A stretch of 64,000 nucleotides of DNA from IMG/VR virus record IMGVR_UViG_3300032167_000004, positions 64,001-128,000 of that record. One strand, given 5' to 3'. Below are positions 3,562-24,782 of this stretch, piece by piece. Source of the DNA: a virus (lineage: Duplodnaviria; Caudoviricetes). The notes beneath the pieces were generated by a model, which did not search any database, had not been told where the DNA came from, and saw only the letters and a program-made list of their open reading frames with translations. Within the stretch, counting starts at the first letter, position 1. Every line of letters begins with the position of its first letter. Both the position numbers and the translations under genes were made by a program.

Positions 3562-4770
3562 ATGGTAGTTTTAAAAGAAGAATATAAACAGATGTTATTA
3601 AAAATGAAACCTGATGATATTACTTCAGATTTTGTTTTTGAATATTTGGCAGATACATCTAAAAAAGTAAATGGTAAATTAGTTCAAGTTCCTAGTAAAA
3701 TTAAAACATATGATACATTTACTTTAAAAAAAGGTGAATATTTTAATACAGAAACTATCACTACTAATGTAGGATTATTTATATTTAATAAATTTCTTAT
3801 TGAAGAATCATTTAGTAAAGTAGTTGGTTATATTAATACTCCTGTTAATGCTAAAATACAGAAAAATATTGAAGCTAAAATTAGCCAGGCTTTATTAGAT
3901 GATATCATTACTGTAGAAGAAATGGTTAAATATTTAAATAAATTACAATGGTTATCTAAAGAATTTAATGCTGTTTTTTCTGGTTCTTTTACAATGAAAA
4001 CTTTAAAACCTGTTCCTAAGGTTATGAAACACAAAGAAAAACTTGTAAAAGAAAATAAAGAAGCATTAGATAAAGGTGATATTGCTGTAGCAGTTAATAT
4101 TGAAAAAGAGTTATTAGATATGGCACGAGAAGAGTTAAAAGGTGATCCTGGAATGGATTTATATAACTCAGGGGCTCGTGGTTCTTTTGATAATAACTAT
4201 AAAAATATAGCTGTTATTAAAGGACCTGTATATAATCCTGTTACAGATAAATATGACTTTGTTTCTTCTAACTTTATGGAAGGAATTAAAAAGGAAGAAA
4301 TTCCTATTGTAGCTAATAGTATTCCCGCTGGAGCATATCCGAAAGCAGTCGGAACACAAACCGGAGGCTACTACAACAAACAGATTTCCGCAGCATTTCA
4401 AGGTGTTGTTTTAGATAAACAAGGATCTGATTGTGGTACTAAATTAACTCTTGAAGTATTACTTACTGATTCTAATAAATCTCAATTCTTACATAGATAT
4501 ATTGTATCTGGTAGTAATTTAATTTTATTAGATAGTAATAATATTGATAAGTATATTAATAAAAAAGTAAAATTTAGATCACCTATGTTCTGTAAAGGTG
4601 ATAAATTATGTAGTAAGTGTGCAGGTATTCTTTATTATAAATTAGGTATTGAGAATATAGGTTTAACTGCTACCAAATTGGCTGGTACATTATTGAATCT
4701 TAATATGAAAAAATTCCATAATAGTACAGCTAATATTAAAAAGATTGATCTTAATGAAATTGACTTATAA
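3562..4770 (+). CDS. RNA polymerase beta'-like subunit, C-terminal half (probably virion RNAP, phiKZ gp80-like)
   Basis: beta' C-half motifs: SGARG, GTQTGGY (TADSGY-like), DCGT, RSPMFC...CSKCAG Zn site, NIG...MKKFH trigger-loop-like. Confidence 0.85.
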   Translation: MVVLKEEYKQMLLKMKPDDITSDFVFEYLADTSKKVNGKLVQVPSKIKTYDTFTLKKGEYFNTETITTNVGLFIFNKFLIEESFSKVVGYINTPVNAKIQKNIEAKISQALLDDIITVEEMVKYLNKLQWLSKEFNAVFSGSFTMKTLKPVPKVMKHKEKLVKENKEALDKGDIAVAVNIEKELLDMAREELKGDPGMDLYNSGARGSFDNNYKNIAVIKGPVYNPVTDKYDFVSSNFMEGIKKEEIPIVANSIPAGAYPKAVGTQTGGYYNKQISAAFQGVVLDKQGSDCGTKLTLEVLLTDSNKSQFLHRYIVSGSNLILLDSNNIDKYINKKVKFRSPMFCKGDKLCSKCAGILYYKLGIENIGLTATKLAGTLLNLNMKKFHNSTANIKKIDLNEIDL

Positions 4771-4775
4771 TTATA

Positions 4776-4804
4776 AGAGAGTATAGGAAATCCCTATACT
4801 CTCT
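4776..4804 (+). terminator. Intrinsic terminator
   Basis: AGAGAGTATAGG/CCTATACTCTCT hairpin plus T-run. Confidence 0.7.
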
Positions 4805-4823
4805 ATTTTTTATTATATTTTTT

Positions 4824-4836
4824 AAATATATATTAT
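4824..4836 (+). promoter_or_regulatory. Early promoter motif AAATATATATTAT
   Basis: Same or one-mismatch motif at 8461, 12647, 17234, 20126, 38368, mostly just after a terminator and before a gene cluster; resembles phiKZ/AR9 early TATATTA motif. Confidence 0.7.
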
Positions 4837-4880
4837 TACCTTGACATAAATATAATAAAATATTTTTAAAAAGAGGAGAA

Positions 4881-5306
4881 ATGTTTATGTTCGGATTAGT
4901 TAGTGAAATTAAATATAATCAACTTGATAAAAAATATGCATCGACTCAAAAAGAGTTAGATGATATTAAAAAGAATTGTGTAATGGTAAGAAAGTCTGAT
5001 ATGGATGTTTTAATGGCGGATATGAAAAAACTTGAAGAAGATAATAGAATGCTTCTTAAAAGATTAGAAGAATATGAAAATGTTATAGATAAAATGCGTA
5101 GATTATCTAATACACCTCTATATACCAGTACAGAATATAAAGGTTTAGATACTGATGCATATTGGGTTACTGAAGAAGGAAAACCTTTAGTGTGTAGTAA
5201 ATGTGGATATAGTTTTTGGAATGGTACCGATCAGTATGTGACCCATTGTTCGGGTTGTGGTCGTCGGATGATAAATATTGTACAGGGTAAAATTAATGAG
5301 GAGTAA
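4881..5306 (+). CDS. Coiled-coil plus Zn-ribbon protein (MFGLVS family)
   Basis: GAGGAG RBS; CSKC/CSGC motifs. Confidence 0.7.
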   Translation: MFMFGLVSEIKYNQLDKKYASTQKELDDIKKNCVMVRKSDMDVLMADMKKLEEDNRMLLKRLEEYENVIDKMRRLSNTPLYTSTEYKGLDTDAYWVTEEGKPLVCSKCGYSFWNGTDQYVTHCSGCGRRMINIVQGKINEE

Positions 5307-5929
5307 TGATTATGTTTGGTTTAGTTAGTAAAAAAGAATATGACATACTTGTAGAGCAGAACAACATGCTTAGTCGTGAAATTTCCCATTATCAACATAT
5401 TATTCATGAATCTGGATTTTGGTATATTCAAAATTATCATGAGAATTTATATAGATGCTCTAATTGTAATTCTGAATTAACTTTTACTTTGGATAGTATT
5501 CCTGCAAAATGTCCTATATGTGAAAAACATATGTATGCATTGAAAAATGATCCCAGACGTATACCTAAAAATCCTGAAGTCGAAGAACTTAAAAAGGAGA
5601 ATGAAAAACTTAAATTACAAATTTCTAGTATGCAAGTAGATATAAATGGATTAGAAGATTCTAATAGACATTATAGAGATAAGTATCTTGATATTTGTGA
5701 TGTTATGAGGGAGATCAATAATACCATATCTGATGAGAATGATCAGATTCCTAATAAATGTCCTGATTGTGGAGGTAACATTTTCTATAATTGTATAGGT
5801 CATTATGGAATGTGTATAAAATGTGGTAAGAATTATAAAATGAGTAAGATGTGGGAAACTTTAAATCTCAAGAAACCTGAAGTTCCTTGTAATAAATGTA
5901 AATATAAGAATAATACTGAGGAGAAATAA
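5306..5929 (+). CDS. Multi-Zn-ribbon coiled-coil protein (MFGLVS family)
   Basis: Five CxxC motifs; N-terminus shared with 4881 and 6474. Confidence 0.7.
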   Translation: MIMFGLVSKKEYDILVEQNNMLSREISHYQHIIHESGFWYIQNYHENLYRCSNCNSELTFTLDSIPAKCPICEKHMYALKNDPRRIPKNPEVEELKKENEKLKLQISSMQVDINGLEDSNRHYRDKYLDICDVMREINNTISDENDQIPNKCPDCGGNIFYNCIGHYGMCIKCGKNYKMSKMWETLNLKKPEVPCNKCKYKNNTEEK

Positions 5930-5931
5930 TT

Positions 5932-6201
5932 ATGCAAGAAGTTACACTCAAAGTTACTAAACGTAAAGCTATTCCATACATCGTCAATTTAAAATGTGAA
6001 TGTGGAGGTAATTTTAGTAAGTCCATACCTATAGCATATGATTATGAAACTAATACCATTAAACATACCTGTGAGAATTGTGGTAGAGTGATCAATTCTA
6101 AATATGAATTCCCATATTCTATGAATTTATCTGATGAACCTGAAGAAGAATATGGTACTTTTAATGTTCTTGAAGGATGTAAAAATACTATCGGACTATA
6201 A
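5932..6201 (+). CDS. Small Zn-ribbon protein (CxCGG...CxxCG family)
   Basis: CECGG, CENCG; GAGGAG RBS. Confidence 0.7.
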   Translation: MQEVTLKVTKRKAIPYIVNLKCECGGNFSKSIPIAYDYETNTIKHTCENCGRVINSKYEFPYSMNLSDEPEEEYGTFNVLEGCKNTIGL

Positions 6202-6232
6202 TAAAAATATAAATAAAGAGGAGAAATTAATT

Positions 6233-6463
6233 ATGGCAAAGACTATGAATAACAACACCCCTATTGTAAATACTACTATTACTGAACCCAAGCCTGCAAA
6301 TACACCTTCTAGTGTACAGTATGCATTATCTATTACCTGTCTTTGTGGTGGTAGATATGTACCTTTGACACATAAAATTGCTGATGTTAATAATGTTTTC
6401 TATAGATGTACTAAATGTGGTAGAGATATTAATATAAAGCGCACACCTATAACTAATAAATGA
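6233..6463 (+). CDS. Small Zn-ribbon protein (CxCGG family)
   Basis: GAGGAG RBS favours start at 6233 rather than 6134; CLCGG, CTKCG. Confidence 0.65.
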   Translation: MAKTMNNNTPIVNTTITEPKPANTPSSVQYALSITCLCGGRYVPLTHKIADVNNVFYRCTKCGRDINIKRTPITNK

Positions 6464-6473
6464 GGTATTCGTT

Positions 6474-6803
6474 ATGTTTGGATTTGTTAGTAAGAAAAAA
6501 TTCAAATATTGTGAAAGTGAATATATTAGAGTTAATACTGAAAATAATGAGCTTATAAAAGAGAATGAAAAACTTAAAAGATTAATGGAAATTGTAAATG
6601 AAGATAATCAAGTTCTTCGTAATGTGAATGATTTTTATCTTAAGAAATATAATGATGCAAAAAATATTATTAGAACTCTTAATAATGAAAATCCTGATAA
6701 GATTAAAATTCCTAGTAAGTGTAAAGTGTGTGATGAATTATTAAATTATAATGAAAACTTACATATTGCAGTATGTCCAAATTGTAATCAAACTTTCAAG
6801 TAA
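6474..6803 (+). CDS. Coiled-coil plus Zn-ribbon protein (MFGLVS family)
   Basis: MFGFVSKK start; CKVC/CPNC. Confidence 0.7.
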   Translation: MFGFVSKKKFKYCESEYIRVNTENNELIKENEKLKRLMEIVNEDNQVLRNVNDFYLKKYNDAKNIIRTLNNENPDKIKIPSKCKVCDELLNYNENLHIAVCPNCNQTFK

Positions 6804-20427: not shown

Positions 20428-23400
20428 ATGAGCAAAAATAATAATACAGGTGTCCAATTAGAGAAACTTAATTGGGATAAAGAATGTGAATTAGATCTTA
20501 TGTTAGGTCGAGGATTCATTGTTTCTGAACCTGCAATTACTGGTAAAGACACTAAGTCTATGTATGGTATCCAATCACCTCTGTTTGCATCTGATTGGTC
20601 AGATGGAGAAGATGCATTCGCTGACCGTTTTAAATGTGCATGTGGTGCTATGAAAGGTAAAATTTTCGAAGGAGAAATTTGTCCTGAATGTAAAACTAAG
20701 ATTGAGTTTAGGGATGTCGATCTTAGCTATACCGGCTGGATAGTCATTAATAATCATAAGATTATTCAACCTATTTATTATAATAAATTAGCATCTATTA
20801 TTGGTAATAAAACTTTTAATGAAATTATTAAATATGATAAGTTTATCGATAGAGATGGACATGTACAAGAAAAGACAACAGATAGTAATCCTTTTAGAGG
20901 AATTGGATTGATTGAATTTAGAGAAAGATTCCAAGAGATATTGGATTATTATAAAGTAAAGAAAAAGAATAAATGGGAAGAAATCAGAGAGATTGAAGAA
21001 GATAAAGATAAAGTATTTACTTCATGTATTCCTGTGTTCAGTTCCGTAAATCTTTAATGCGGCTATATAAAGTGATTTATATAGTGAACTCTTTTAATTG
21101 CTGGGAACTCTAGAAATAGACAATCAGCAGCCAACCCTATAAATTGCATAATAATTAATTTAAAGAAGGTGTTTTAAATACTTTTTGAACGTATAGTTGA
21201 AATATTTTTACCATTTTATTACGAAGGTAAAAAGACAATATATCTTGTCAGTGATGCTGGTAGAATTATGAATGGTAAAAGTGGTAGAATATTAAAAACT
21301 CGTATAGAGAAAGATTATGAACGTGTTGGTTTATCACTTAATGGTGTAGATAAAGATTTTTCTGTACATCGTTTAGTGGCAATGGTATTTATTCCTAACC
21401 CTGAAAATAAACCAACAGTAAATCATATTAATATTCATAATTTAAGTGCTGCAGAAAATAAACAAGATAATTGTATTGAAAATCTCGAATGGGCAACATA
21501 TCCAGAACAAGCTGAACATGCTCTGAGAACTAAATTACGAGAACCATTACGAGGTGAAGATAATCCTGCAGCAAAATTAACTGAAGAAGATGTTAAAAAT
21601 ATATCAATGATATTTACAATGAATGAATTAACTATTTCAGAAATAGCAACTCTATTTAAAGTAGATTATGAAACAATACGTGATATATATTGTGGTAATA
21701 CATGGAGACATATTACATGTGACTATGATTTCAGTAATTATACTAAATTAGGTTGTGAAATATATACTGATGAACAAATTCATCATGTATGTAGATTTCT
21801 GGAAGAAAATAAATTACTGGTTTCAGAAATATCTAAAGAAACAGGTGTTGATGAATTCAATATTAGACATATTATAAGGAAAGATTCATGGTTACGAATT
21901 TCTAATAATTATAATATATCTAATTATGATAAAATTAGACCTGTTACAAAAAACACTGAAGAACAAATTCATCATGTGTGTAAATTATTAGAAGAAAATA
22001 AATTAACATTACATGAGATTTCTGATATAACTAGTGTAAAATATAAAGTAGTTAATGCCATTCTTAACGGTAAAAATTGGAAACATATCTCTTCACTATA
22101 TAATATCAACTATACCGCATTTGAGATTAAAAAATAAAAAAAATAATTATGCATTTTATAGGAAGGTTCAACGACTATTAAGTACATCCTAATGTAGATG
22201 GAAATGGAGAGCATCTTTAATAATAAGATGAAGATATAGTCTAGTCTTTATAGAAATATAAAGAAGTTCTATATAGAGAACTGTATAAGAGTAACGATCT
22301 TATATGAATATAACAATTAAGACCAGTGTCGTTCAGAAATGATAGTTTCTTTTATTCGACGATTGATAAGAAATACAATAGTATATTCTCGTCTGCACGT
22401 CTGTTAAATGATACAGACTTGTATGAAAAGAGAAGAAAGAAATGGACAAAGGAAAAAAGAGAAAGAATGGACATTGCTACTATTCTTTCAACAATTCAGG
22501 AAAAATTAATGCAGTTATGGGAATTAGTATTCGACCTTATAAACCAGAAGGATGGATTCATAAAATCGGAGATACTCGGTGGAATAAAACTAATTGTTCC
22601 TATACATAGTAATATGTATATAAAACTTTCTTAATTGCTGGGACATCATATATGGACAATCAGCAGCCAAGACTATCTAAAAAGATAGTAAGGTTCAACG
22701 ACTATTAGATTCAAGTGAATCATAATGGAAAGCTCCTTTTAATAAAAGGATGAAGATATAGTCTAATCTTTATAGTAATATAAAGCTGTTATTAAATTAA
22801 CGATATAAGAGTAATGAACTTATATGAATATTATTGGATTAATTTCTCTAGCCGTTGTAAAAATAATGCAACGTAACTCTTTTAATTGCTGGAAAGTCTA
22901 GAAATAGATAATCAGCATCCAAGACTATCTAAAAAAGATAGTAAGGTTCAACGACTATTAGATTCAAGTGAATCATAATGGAGAGCAACTTATTATAATA
23001 AGTTGAAGATATAGTCTAATCTTTATAGTAATATAAAGCTGTTATTAAATTAACGATATAAGAGTAATGAACTTATATGAATATTATTGGTTATTATTCC
23101 TGATCCTGAATTGAAAGCAGATGAAGTAAAACTTAACTATATGGCATTAAATTAAAAGTGTCCTCATATAGTAATATATGATGTAAAAACTTTCTTAATT
23201 GCTGGGAAATCCTATACGGACAATCAGCAGCGAATACTCTTTATAAAAAAATATAAAAAGGAGATACAGTATGAAATACGAATTTACGATAAAACCTATA
23301 GAAGGAGAAACCTATACTATATTAAAAGATATTGATGGTAATGATACTGAATTTTTAATTAGTAAAAATGGTTATATTACACCTTCTAATACTATCATTG

Positions 23401-24782
23401 TTGAAATATGGAAACCTATTTTTATAAATGGTGAAAAAACTCATTATTTGATCAGTGACTATGGTAGAATCAAAAATTCAAAAAAGAATAAAATACTTAA
23501 ACCTAAAACAAATGCATATTGGGGATATAAACAAGTTGATTTATCTATACATAATGTAAAGTATCAGTGTAAAGTTCATAGATTAGTAGCAGAAGCTTTT
23601 ATTCATAATCCTGGAAATAAAAAGACTGTAGACCATATAATTGTAACTTCTCCAAGTGAGATTGGTAAAGCTATTAATACAGTATTTAATTTACGATGGG
23701 CTACTCAAGAAGAACAAGCTAAATATGCTATTTCGTCTGGAGCTAGACATGGTGTTAAAGGATCTAAAAATCATCTTGCTAAAATGGATGAATTAATGGC
23801 ACATGCAATTTGCAAAGAAATTGTAAAATATGAGTTATCTATTATTGAGATTAGTAAAAAATTAAATATTCCGTCGCATACTATAACAGATATTTTAGAT
23901 AAAAGATCTTGGATACATATATCATCAAATTATGATATTGATAGATCTAGAATACCTTCTAGTAGAAGAGGATTAGACAAAGAAGATTTATTTAAAATAT
24001 TTAAGTTGCGAGATGATGGATATACTTATAAATATATTGCTGATCAGATTGATAATAAGATAACATCAGGTGCTATAAGAGATATGATGAATCGACCCGG
24101 TAGTTATAAAAAAGAAAAAGAAGAATATGCATTATTATATAAAAATAATAAAGAGTAACGTTCAACGACTAATATATCTGTGTAAGATAGTAATAGAAAG
24201 TATCCTATTCATCAAATAGGATAATGATATAGTCTAATCTTTATAGTAATATAAAGCAGTTATTAAAATAACGGTGTAAGATTAACAATCTTATATGAAT
24301 AAAATGTTTTGGAACTTTATAAGTACGAGATAATCGCATATCTCGTTAAGATGGCAGGTATTACTGAAAATGAAGCCTATGAAGCTTGGTTTAAAGCCCG
24401 TATAGTTTATAATCCTAAAATTTATGAAGTAATGAATTTTATTCTTAAGAAAAGAAAGCCTAAGATCCTGATTAATCGTAACCCCACGATTAATTATGGG
24501 TCCTTGCTTTGTGTTAAGATTAAATCTATTAAGAACGAGTTTTCTGAAGATTACACGATGAGTATGCCACTGCAGATTTTAAGTGTACTGAACGCTGACT
24601 TCGACGGAGATATTCTGAATATTATTAGTCTGAAAACAAAAGCTTTAGAAAAAGAATATAATAAGATTTTTAATCCTAGATTAAATCTCTTTGTTAGTAG
24701 AAATGATGGCATGTTCAATAGTGATGTATCTTTGTTTAAAGATGAAATTATTGGATTGTGGTCCTTTAATAATATTGAATAA
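20428..24782 (+). CDS. Catalytic RNA polymerase beta'-like subunit, N-terminal half (non-virion RNAP, AR9 gp270/phiKZ gp55-like); spliced, join(20428..21047,22316..22585,22837..22858,23090..23147,24307..24782), 481 aa
   Basis: Joined exons (1446 nt) are in frame and restore the CxCG/CPEC Zn finger, IPVFSSVLRP, ILGGMINFSSRCVIIP, AFLELYK, NRNPT and NADFDGD. Confidence 0.9.
21048..22315 (+). mobile_element. Group I intron 1 with HNH endonuclease; terminal nucleotide A
   Basis: P1 CCGU/GCGG with U-G, AATTGCTGGGAA (P), AATCAGCAG (Q), GTTCAACGACTA (R), AAGATATAGTCT (S); P10 TTAAT pairs with exon ATTAA. Confidence 0.9.
21178..22137 (+). CDS. Intron-encoded NUMOD4-HNH homing endonuclease with C-terminal HTH repeats
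   Basis: VHRLVA..FIPNPENKPTVNHIN...DNCIENLEW; frame open from ATA 21178 (after AAGAAGGTG), encoding NUMOD4 EIF.P...YLVSDAGR; first ATG at 21268. Confidence 0.85.
   Translation: MLFERIVEIFLPFYYEGKKTIYLVSDAGRIMNGKSGRILKTRIEKDYERVGLSLNGVDKDFSVHRLVAMVFIPNPENKPTVNHINIHNLSAAENKQDNCIENLEWATYPEQAEHALRTKLREPLRGEDNPAAKLTEEDVKNISMIFTMNELTISEIATLFKVDYETIRDIYCGNTWRHITCDYDFSNYTKLGCEIYTDEQIHHVCRFLEENKLLVSEISKETGVDEFNIRHIIRKDSWLRISNNYNISNYDKIRPVTKNTEEQIHHVCKLLEENKLTLHEISDITSVKYKVVNAILNGKNWKHISSLYNINYTAFEIKK
22586..22836 (+). mobile_element. Group I intron 2 (251 nt, no ORF)
   Basis: P1 GGAAU/GUUCC, P/Q/R/S elements, terminal G, P10 TAATT:GATTA. Confidence 0.9.
22859..23089 (+). mobile_element. Group I intron 3 (231 nt, no ORF)
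   Basis: P1 CGUUGU/GCAACG, P/Q/R/S elements, terminal G, P10 AATAAT:GTTATT. Confidence 0.9.
23148..24306 (+). mobile_element. Group I intron 4 with HNH endonuclease
   Basis: P1 GGCAU/GUGUC, P/Q/R/S elements, terminal G24306, P10 TTAAAA:TTTTGG. Confidence 0.9.
23271..24158 (+). CDS. Intron-encoded NUMOD4-HNH homing endonuclease
   Basis: EIWKPI...YLISDYGR, VHRLVAEAFI.NP..KKTVDH...NLRW; AAAGGAG RBS; inserted in P6 loop. Confidence 0.85.
   Translation: MKYEFTIKPIEGETYTILKDIDGNDTEFLISKNGYITPSNTIIVEIWKPIFINGEKTHYLISDYGRIKNSKKNKILKPKTNAYWGYKQVDLSIHNVKYQCKVHRLVAEAFIHNPGNKKTVDHIIVTSPSEIGKAINTVFNLRWATQEEQAKYAISSGARHGVKGSKNHLAKMDELMAHAICKEIVKYELSIIEISKKLNIPSHTITDILDKRSWIHISSNYDIDRSRIPSSRRGLDKEDLFKIFKLRDDGYTYKYIADQIDNKITSGAIRDMMNRPGSYKKEKEEYALLYKNNKE

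Follow-up and report, generated by a model that had tools for sequence, protein, structure and literature searches.

A group I intron in the RNA polymerase beta′ gene of a jumbo phage is predicted to end in A in place of the usual G

The last nucleotide of group I introns, termed omega, is taught to be a universal G that is essential for the second step of splicing. Omega G-to-A mutants of the Tetrahymena intron ligate their exons very slowly. Work on the Tetrahymena ribozyme by Michel et al. 1989 and by Been and Perrotta 1991 is said to have combined the omega G-to-A change with a change in P7 (G264A:C311U), and to have shown that P7 and the terminal base act as one recognition pair. A natural intron ending in A has reportedly been described by Raghavan et al. 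2007 (J Bacteriol 189:6572), namely the self-splicing Cbu.L1917 intron in the 23S rRNA of Coxiella burnetii, which is said to have an ordinary P7. Omega-G in group I introns is near-universal but not absolute (PMC8146996). The hexacoral mitochondrial ND5-717 intron has omega-A, and its exons were found to be perfectly ligated in vivo by RNA-seq and RT-PCR (PMC8146996, PMC6545197). It was suggested by the authors of the former study that omega-A may block 3′ splice-site hydrolysis and circularisation (PMC8146996). A preliminary description of the locus reported here held omega-A to be very rare, to have been described for Coxiella and to impair exon ligation. Its list was incomplete, the ND5-717 intron, which splices accurately in vivo (PMC8146996, PMC6545197), being a further case. 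The group I introns of phages have been reviewed (PMC3984707), and no description of omega-A in a phage intron was found in the literature searched.

The window analysed here is a stretch of 64,000 nt, bases 64001-128000 of a 263,786-bp IMG/VR virus record with a CheckV completeness of 100%. Its source is an AR9/phiR1-37-like jumbo phage of 263.8 kb, the genome of which is a metagenome assembly. Positions 20428-24782 code for the N-terminal half of the beta′ subunit of a multisubunit non-virion RNA polymerase (nvRNAP), which is interrupted by four related group I introns. The exons and introns are as follows:

Exon 1: 20428 to 21047, plus strand; 620 nt, ending ...TTC AGT TCC GT; placed by tblastn and by colinearity with 120 homologues.
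Intron 1: 21048 to 22315, plus strand; group I intron of 1268 nt; bounds from P1/P10, intron-less alleles and the family tail.
Exon 2: 22316 to 22585, plus strand; 270 nt, starting A TTA AGA CCA, which completes Val and continues with Leu-Arg-Pro.
Intron 2: 22586 to 22836, plus strand; no ORF, ends in G; Rfam 84.6 bits, P1/P10.
Exon 3: 22837 to 22858, plus strand; 22 nt.
Intron 3: 22859 to 23089, plus strand; no ORF, ends in G; Rfam 83.7 bits, P1/P10.
Exon 4: 23090 to 23147, plus strand; 58 nt.
Intron 4: 23148 to 24306, plus strand; NUMOD4 endonuclease ORF, ends in G; from Rfam partial matches, Pfam and the sequence.
Exon 5: 24307 to 24782, plus strand; 476 nt, with the NADFDGD catalytic motif; Pfam RNA_pol_Rpb1_2.

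Together the five exons (620+270+22+58+476 nt) form an open frame of 481 codons. The predicted spliced protein contains CACG...CPEC (the N-terminal Cys4 zinc motif), SSVLRP (the (V/L)RP lid-base motif) and the NADFDGD catalytic loop. Exon 1 matched the beta′/RpoC genes of Yersinia phage phiR1-37 and Staphylococcus jumbo phages by tblastn, with several of the matches annotated as 'non-viral RNA polymerase beta-prime subunit'. A megablast search of GenBank phages with the beta′ gene returned no close match, and no RNA run was listed among the runs holding this gene. One copy of the nvRNAP beta′ gene was found in the whole phage genome. The same genome contains at least 10 introns of the intron-1 type, and all of the others end UG. 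Introns 2 and 3 (22586-23089) have nearly identical 3′ cores and different guides, and are separated by an exon of only 22 nt.

Intron 1 was assigned by eye as IA2-like, with a homing-endonuclease ORF within the P6 loop. The Rfam model RF00028 gave two partial matches, at 21038-21199 (P1-P6, 30.8 bits) and 22147-22263 (P7-P9, 36 bits), either of which by itself falls under the gathering score of 50 bits; the match is split because the 1-kb ORF interrupts it. The ORF-less sister introns 2 and 3 have the same core blocks. Introns 2-4 are laid out like intron 1, with a P1 that ends in a U.G pair and a P10 directly adjoining, and their last base is G (intron 4 was checked by hand). The elements of intron 1 are as follows:

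P1: 21044 to 21047 (CCGU, 5′ exon) with 21059 to 21062 (GCGG), plus strand; computed pairing, terminal pair U21047.G21059.
P10: 21054 to 21058 (guide UUAAU) with A22316 to A22320 of exon 2, plus strand; 5 bp, the wobble G22321.U21053 being a sixth pair.
P7 5′ strand: 22173 to 22177, plus strand; GACUA, guanosine-binding helix, identical in the G-ending sister introns.
P7 3′ strand: 22237 to 22241, plus strand; UAGUC.
J7/9 UAG: 22242 to 22244, plus strand; P9.0 is G22244:C22314, plus U22245:A22313.
Conserved 3′ tail GAAUAUAAC: 22306 to 22314, plus strand; from the family comparison in IMG/VR.
Omega: 22315, plus strand; A, not G.
Nearest downstream G: 22321, plus strand; in-frame alternative 3′ splice site.
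Homing endonuclease ORF: 21178 to 22137, plus strand; 319 codons from stop to stop, Pfam NUMOD4 (E=6e-6) and HTH_28.

A search with the endonuclease returned distant matches only. Its ORF has no ATG, GTG or TTG upstream of the NUMOD4 motif, and the first ATG lies near 21269. A possible unusual start codon is ATA at 21178, located 7 nt downstream of the sequence AAGGTG (21165-70).

Positions 22306-22325 read GAATATAAC-A/ATTAAGACCA, where the slash marks the splice junction, and the sequence around the 3′ junction is ...CTTATATGAATATAACA/ATTAAGACCAGTG. Five independent lines of comparison agree (P1/P10, colinearity with homologues, intron-less alleles, the family tail and P9.0) and confirm A22315 as the predicted last base of intron 1. 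The product of the 21047/22316 junction (481 aa) aligns without a gap at the junction to 120 homologues. At the junction the columns are I-P-V-(Y/F)-S-(S/A)-V-L-R-P, in which Arg is conserved in 121/121 and Leu in 114/121 sequences. An intron-less relative of 71% identity (L015) is contiguous at this point (...TTCTCGGCTGTCCTTCGTCCGATT...) and encodes SAVLRPI (...SAVLRPISFR). Likewise, an intron-less strain with an exon 1 that is 96% identical (L062/L063) is contiguous (...TCTTCTGTACTTCGTCCTGTT...) and encodes SSVLRPV (protein ...SSVLRPVSFRND). The in-frame TAA at 22311-13 excludes 3′ splice sites upstream of 22311 and, as G is absent from 22311-22320, no G-ending intron keeps Leu-Arg-Pro. Among the sisters, introns 2 and 3 end GAAUAUUAUUG, and intron 4 ends GAAUAAAAUG. 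The junction of intron 1 can slide by one base (21047/22316 or 21048/22317), since the first base of the intron and the first base of exon 2 are both A; both registers leave a terminal A and only 21047 follows a U.

The preliminary description had placed the 3′ splice site after A22315 on the grounds that the guide aligns CCGT/ATTAA, that SSVLRP is preserved and that the ends of the sister introns match intron 1 in spacing. It had also regarded P7 (GACTA with TAGTC) as canonical. The site itself is borne out by the five lines above. The computed P1 and the P10 of 5-6 bp agree with the position given by the guide, the spliced protein is colinear and the intron-less alleles uninterrupted across SSVLRP, and the sister introns have the sequences and the spacing claimed. 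GACUA and UAGUC are present in P7, as they are in the G-ending sisters.

A survey of homologous introns had also been proposed. IMG/VR was scanned for the P7 3′ strand plus J7/9 UAG, followed 45-75 nt downstream by GAATATAAC. Thirty three distinct introns with the tail GAAUAUAAC were found and the next base was G in all (33/33), at the position where intron 1 has A22315. A metagenome scan demanding a non-G base after the tail gave one chance match and one true intron, which reads AAC-C-G. The third base of J7/9 covaries with the base preceding omega (omega-1), its partner in P9.0, in about 190 family members. A G as third base is accompanied by C at omega-1 in at least 75/96, the apparent exceptions being mostly tails such as AAGCG that were mis-parsed by the simple rule used, and an A as third base is accompanied by U in 86/94. 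With the UAG of intron 1 and C22314, the P9.0 register therefore sets omega at 22315.

Further candidates for omega-A introns were rejected upon inspection. Seven of these (L061, L201, L128, L262-L265) are chance matches, in two (L253, L144) the motif runs on into an ORF or an insertion, and one (L060) ends AAC-C-G. The GAATAT motif of L266 encodes Glu-Tyr within an exon, and the terminal base of the intron there is G. A remaining candidate, L125, reads …AAAC-A-G, and its 5′ exon falls outside the locus. L266 (IMGVR_UViG_3300044568_004442, 4015-6759) is a giant-virus-type major capsid protein gene (…LNFNHPVKEIVWV…) with two group I introns. These have the core GAUAUAGUCUAG as in the phage family, one of them has an endonuclease ORF and both apparently end in G.

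The codons flanking the insertion site show synonymous recoding between alleles. In the intron-plus allele (21036-21047 + 22316-22337 compared) they are AGT TCC GTA TTA AGA CCA, while the intron-less alleles have TCT TCT GTA CTT CGT CCT (L062) and TCG GCT GTC CTT CGT CCG (L015). Leu-Arg is encoded by TTA AGA only in the intron-plus allele, which fits the guide UUAAU, whereas the intron-less CTT CGT does not. As only the intron-plus exons match the guide, the exon flanks appear to travel with the intron, and they match the guide at exactly the 21047/22316 junction. This recoding may also alter recognition by the endonuclease. Other phages were searched for an intron at the intron-1 site of beta′ and none was found; the relatives retrieved are without intron 1. 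In L062/L063 sites 1-3 are empty and introns are found after QKDG and at site 4, and in L015 (5983-8760) all four sites are empty and a single intron lies before LPIQILSVLNADFDGD. The truncated proteins P0040 and P0115 indicate yet another intron site, after FFY(N/S)(S/T)I. Judged by these predicted sites, the N-terminal beta′ gene is an intron hot spot.

A second omega-A intron of the same family was found in a large-terminase gene (L078, IMGVR_UViG_3300035498_001516, minus strand, 2372-2775). It has J7/9 UAG and the tail GAAUAUACC-A/AAAACU, its P1 is GGGU with GCCC and its P10 is AAAA with UUUU. The junction LLRG/KTLQIIWYDE is gap-free against the terminase of Bacillus phage BpSp and fits the contiguous LLRGKTL...W(Y/F)DE of ~70 close homologues; a G-ending alternative would add three residues that are present in no homologue. 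The orthologues that occupy this terminase site in two related phages (L267 and L268) end GAAGAUAUUG/AAAACU and GAAGGUACUG/AAAACA. Their tails are 10 nt long as in L078, and the last base is G. Taken together, L078 and intron 1 suggest that omega-A arose at least two times in the family. Both omega-A introns adjoin a G:C P9.0 pair.

The sequence data at 22315 were inspected, as the preliminary description had proposed, in Logan contigs (assembled, not reads) of four runs placed on the beta′ gene. Run X6, from another sample, contains a contig of 1804 nt (20692-22495) with 0 differences, and run X10, which belongs to another study (a gut metagenome of 2022), contains a contig at 22274-22363 that also has 0 differences. 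A second X10 contig (20485-21401) spans the 5′ splice site and has 21 differences. The 18 that fall in exon 1 affect 15 codons and are all synonymous, which points to a gene under purifying selection. The last ~200 nt of exon 1 ahead of intron 1 are free of differences, a pattern like that of a co-conversion tract left by homing. The X10 contigs cover little sequence at low depth (~2.6-5.4), and those at the 5′ and 3′ junctions are separate records that may come from different strains. Read with that limit, the contigs suggest that the omega-A allele is present in at least two diverged strains. Site 22315 is uncovered in run X8. Run X12 contains related introns only, one contig of which matches through 22314 and then reads GAAATATGG, a G-ending relative. 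Where covered the base is A, and no variant at 22315, G included, is listed in the contigs of the four runs, minor alleles below the contig level being possible. The preliminary description had allowed for a sequencing error at A22315, with G as the true base. Single-base errors do occur in metagenome assemblies and the relatives carry G at omega without exception, but an error is extremely improbable because the independently assembled X6 and X10 contigs show the same A. A22315 is confirmed not to be an assembly artefact.

If the A is real, the allele might still be one that cannot splice, either because the gene is broken, as in a defective or helper-dependent phage, or because the N-terminal part of beta′ is made as two polypeptides. 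In support of this, efficient exon ligation in model introns needs omega-G, and the RNA polymerase subunits of jumbo phages are often divided between separate genes (PMC7598289). However, the allele is found in many samples and in the diverged strain with only synonymous changes in exon 1, the genome has a single copy of the gene, and P1, P10 and the core of the ribozyme are intact. Moreover, neither piece would hold the invariant Arg: read-through from exon 1 stops after ...SSVNL, and translation downstream of the intron could begin at GTG 22326 at the earliest. We therefore regard loss of splicing as unlikely. Mutant group I introns without omega-G can splice at cryptic G residues nearby. 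Use of G22321 in place of A22315, another option of the preliminary description, would recruit the closest G and preserve the frame, giving a beta′ without Leu-Arg (…SSV-PVSFR…). It is nonetheless highly improbable, being disfavoured because the Arg that is invariant in all 121 sequences would be deleted and P10 would be almost absent, collapsing to scattered pairs. No homologue is gapped at this point, the P9.0 partner would be A22320 and not C, and the tail would exceed that of any relative by 6 nt. A further reading is that omega-A is selected, not just tolerated, or alternatively that it throttles the supply of late RNA polymerase. The published idea on hydrolysis and circularisation in ND5-717 (PMC8146996) is in keeping with selection, as are two origins in the family, each beside a G:C P9.0 pair. 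Yet this too is very unlikely: only 2 clear cases are found among the ~185 family members sampled and the terminase orthologues at the same site retain G, so that omega-A looks sporadic and tolerated. Of the options in the preliminary description, a natural variant is the best reading; its further suggestion, that such a variant would limit the production of RNA polymerase, finds no support in this analysis.

We thus consider it probable, on the features described above, that intron 1 is a mobile, endonuclease-carrying group I intron in which the omega G has mutated to A, and that it is still accurately spliced at U21047/A22316. In an ordinary step 1, free GTP bound in P7 would attack immediately 3′ to the U.G pair of P1. 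For step 2, the 3′ splice site would be kept in position by the P10 of 5-6 bp with the guide, by the P9.0 pair or pairs (G22244:C22314 and U22245:A22313) and, as a third element, by the conserved tail GAAUAUAAC. With all three in place, a weakly binding A would be able to fill the guanosine pocket sufficiently for exon ligation. P7 and the J8/7 region do not differ from those of G-ending relatives, which indicates that the pocket has not been re-tuned to adenine, and without a compensating change in P7 the A should bind it poorly. The exons flanking intron 1 are probably ligated more slowly than those at the sister introns. That the exons are ligated in vivo is what we infer from purifying selection and from the persistence of the allele across samples. 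It is decidedly unlikely that the G:C P9.0, P10 and the GAAUAU-NNC tail would define the 3′ splice site tightly enough to make omega-G dispensable, and that omega-A is kept for a benefit.

As omega-A has already been published for Coxiella and ND5-717, intron 1, as predicted here, adds one more case to a rare class that was already known. What it contributes is a firmly supported junction, three omega-G sisters within one gene, a second, independent case that has omega-G orthologues, and the covariation in P9.0. A natural omega-A intron in an essential phage gene would provide a small system in which to set P9.0, P10 and the tail against the guanosine pocket in the choice of the 3′ splice site, with the omega-G sister introns 2-4 of the same transcript as built-in controls. 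An annotation tool that insists on a terminal G would put the junction in the wrong place and drop the invariant catalytic-cleft Arg from the predicted polymerase.

Like intron 1, ND5-717 has omega-A within a protein-coding gene. However, ND5-717 is organellar, vertically inherited, fixed in its clade and host to giant insertions, whereas intron 1 is a mobile phage intron with relatives that have G, its omega-A is a sporadic substitution, and its splicing is predicted from sequence. The Coxiella intron Cbu.L1917 is also a bacterial-type group I intron that is without the canonical omega-G, but it lies in a bacterial rRNA gene, not a phage protein gene, and belongs to another intron lineage. 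In the engineered Tetrahymena ribozyme the pocket was changed to match the last base; the P7 of intron 1, in contrast, is unchanged and offers no compensation. The group I introns found in RNA polymerase and other genes of AR9/PBS1-like jumbo phages, and those of other phages, resemble intron 1 in that they are mobile, bear endonucleases, reside in essential genes and have a P7.1/P7.2-type core. Set against the family members collected here, in which omega-G is the rule (33/33 of those with the same tail), intron 1 departs at its last base, and the beta′ gene is densely occupied, with four introns in a coding sequence of 1.45 kb.
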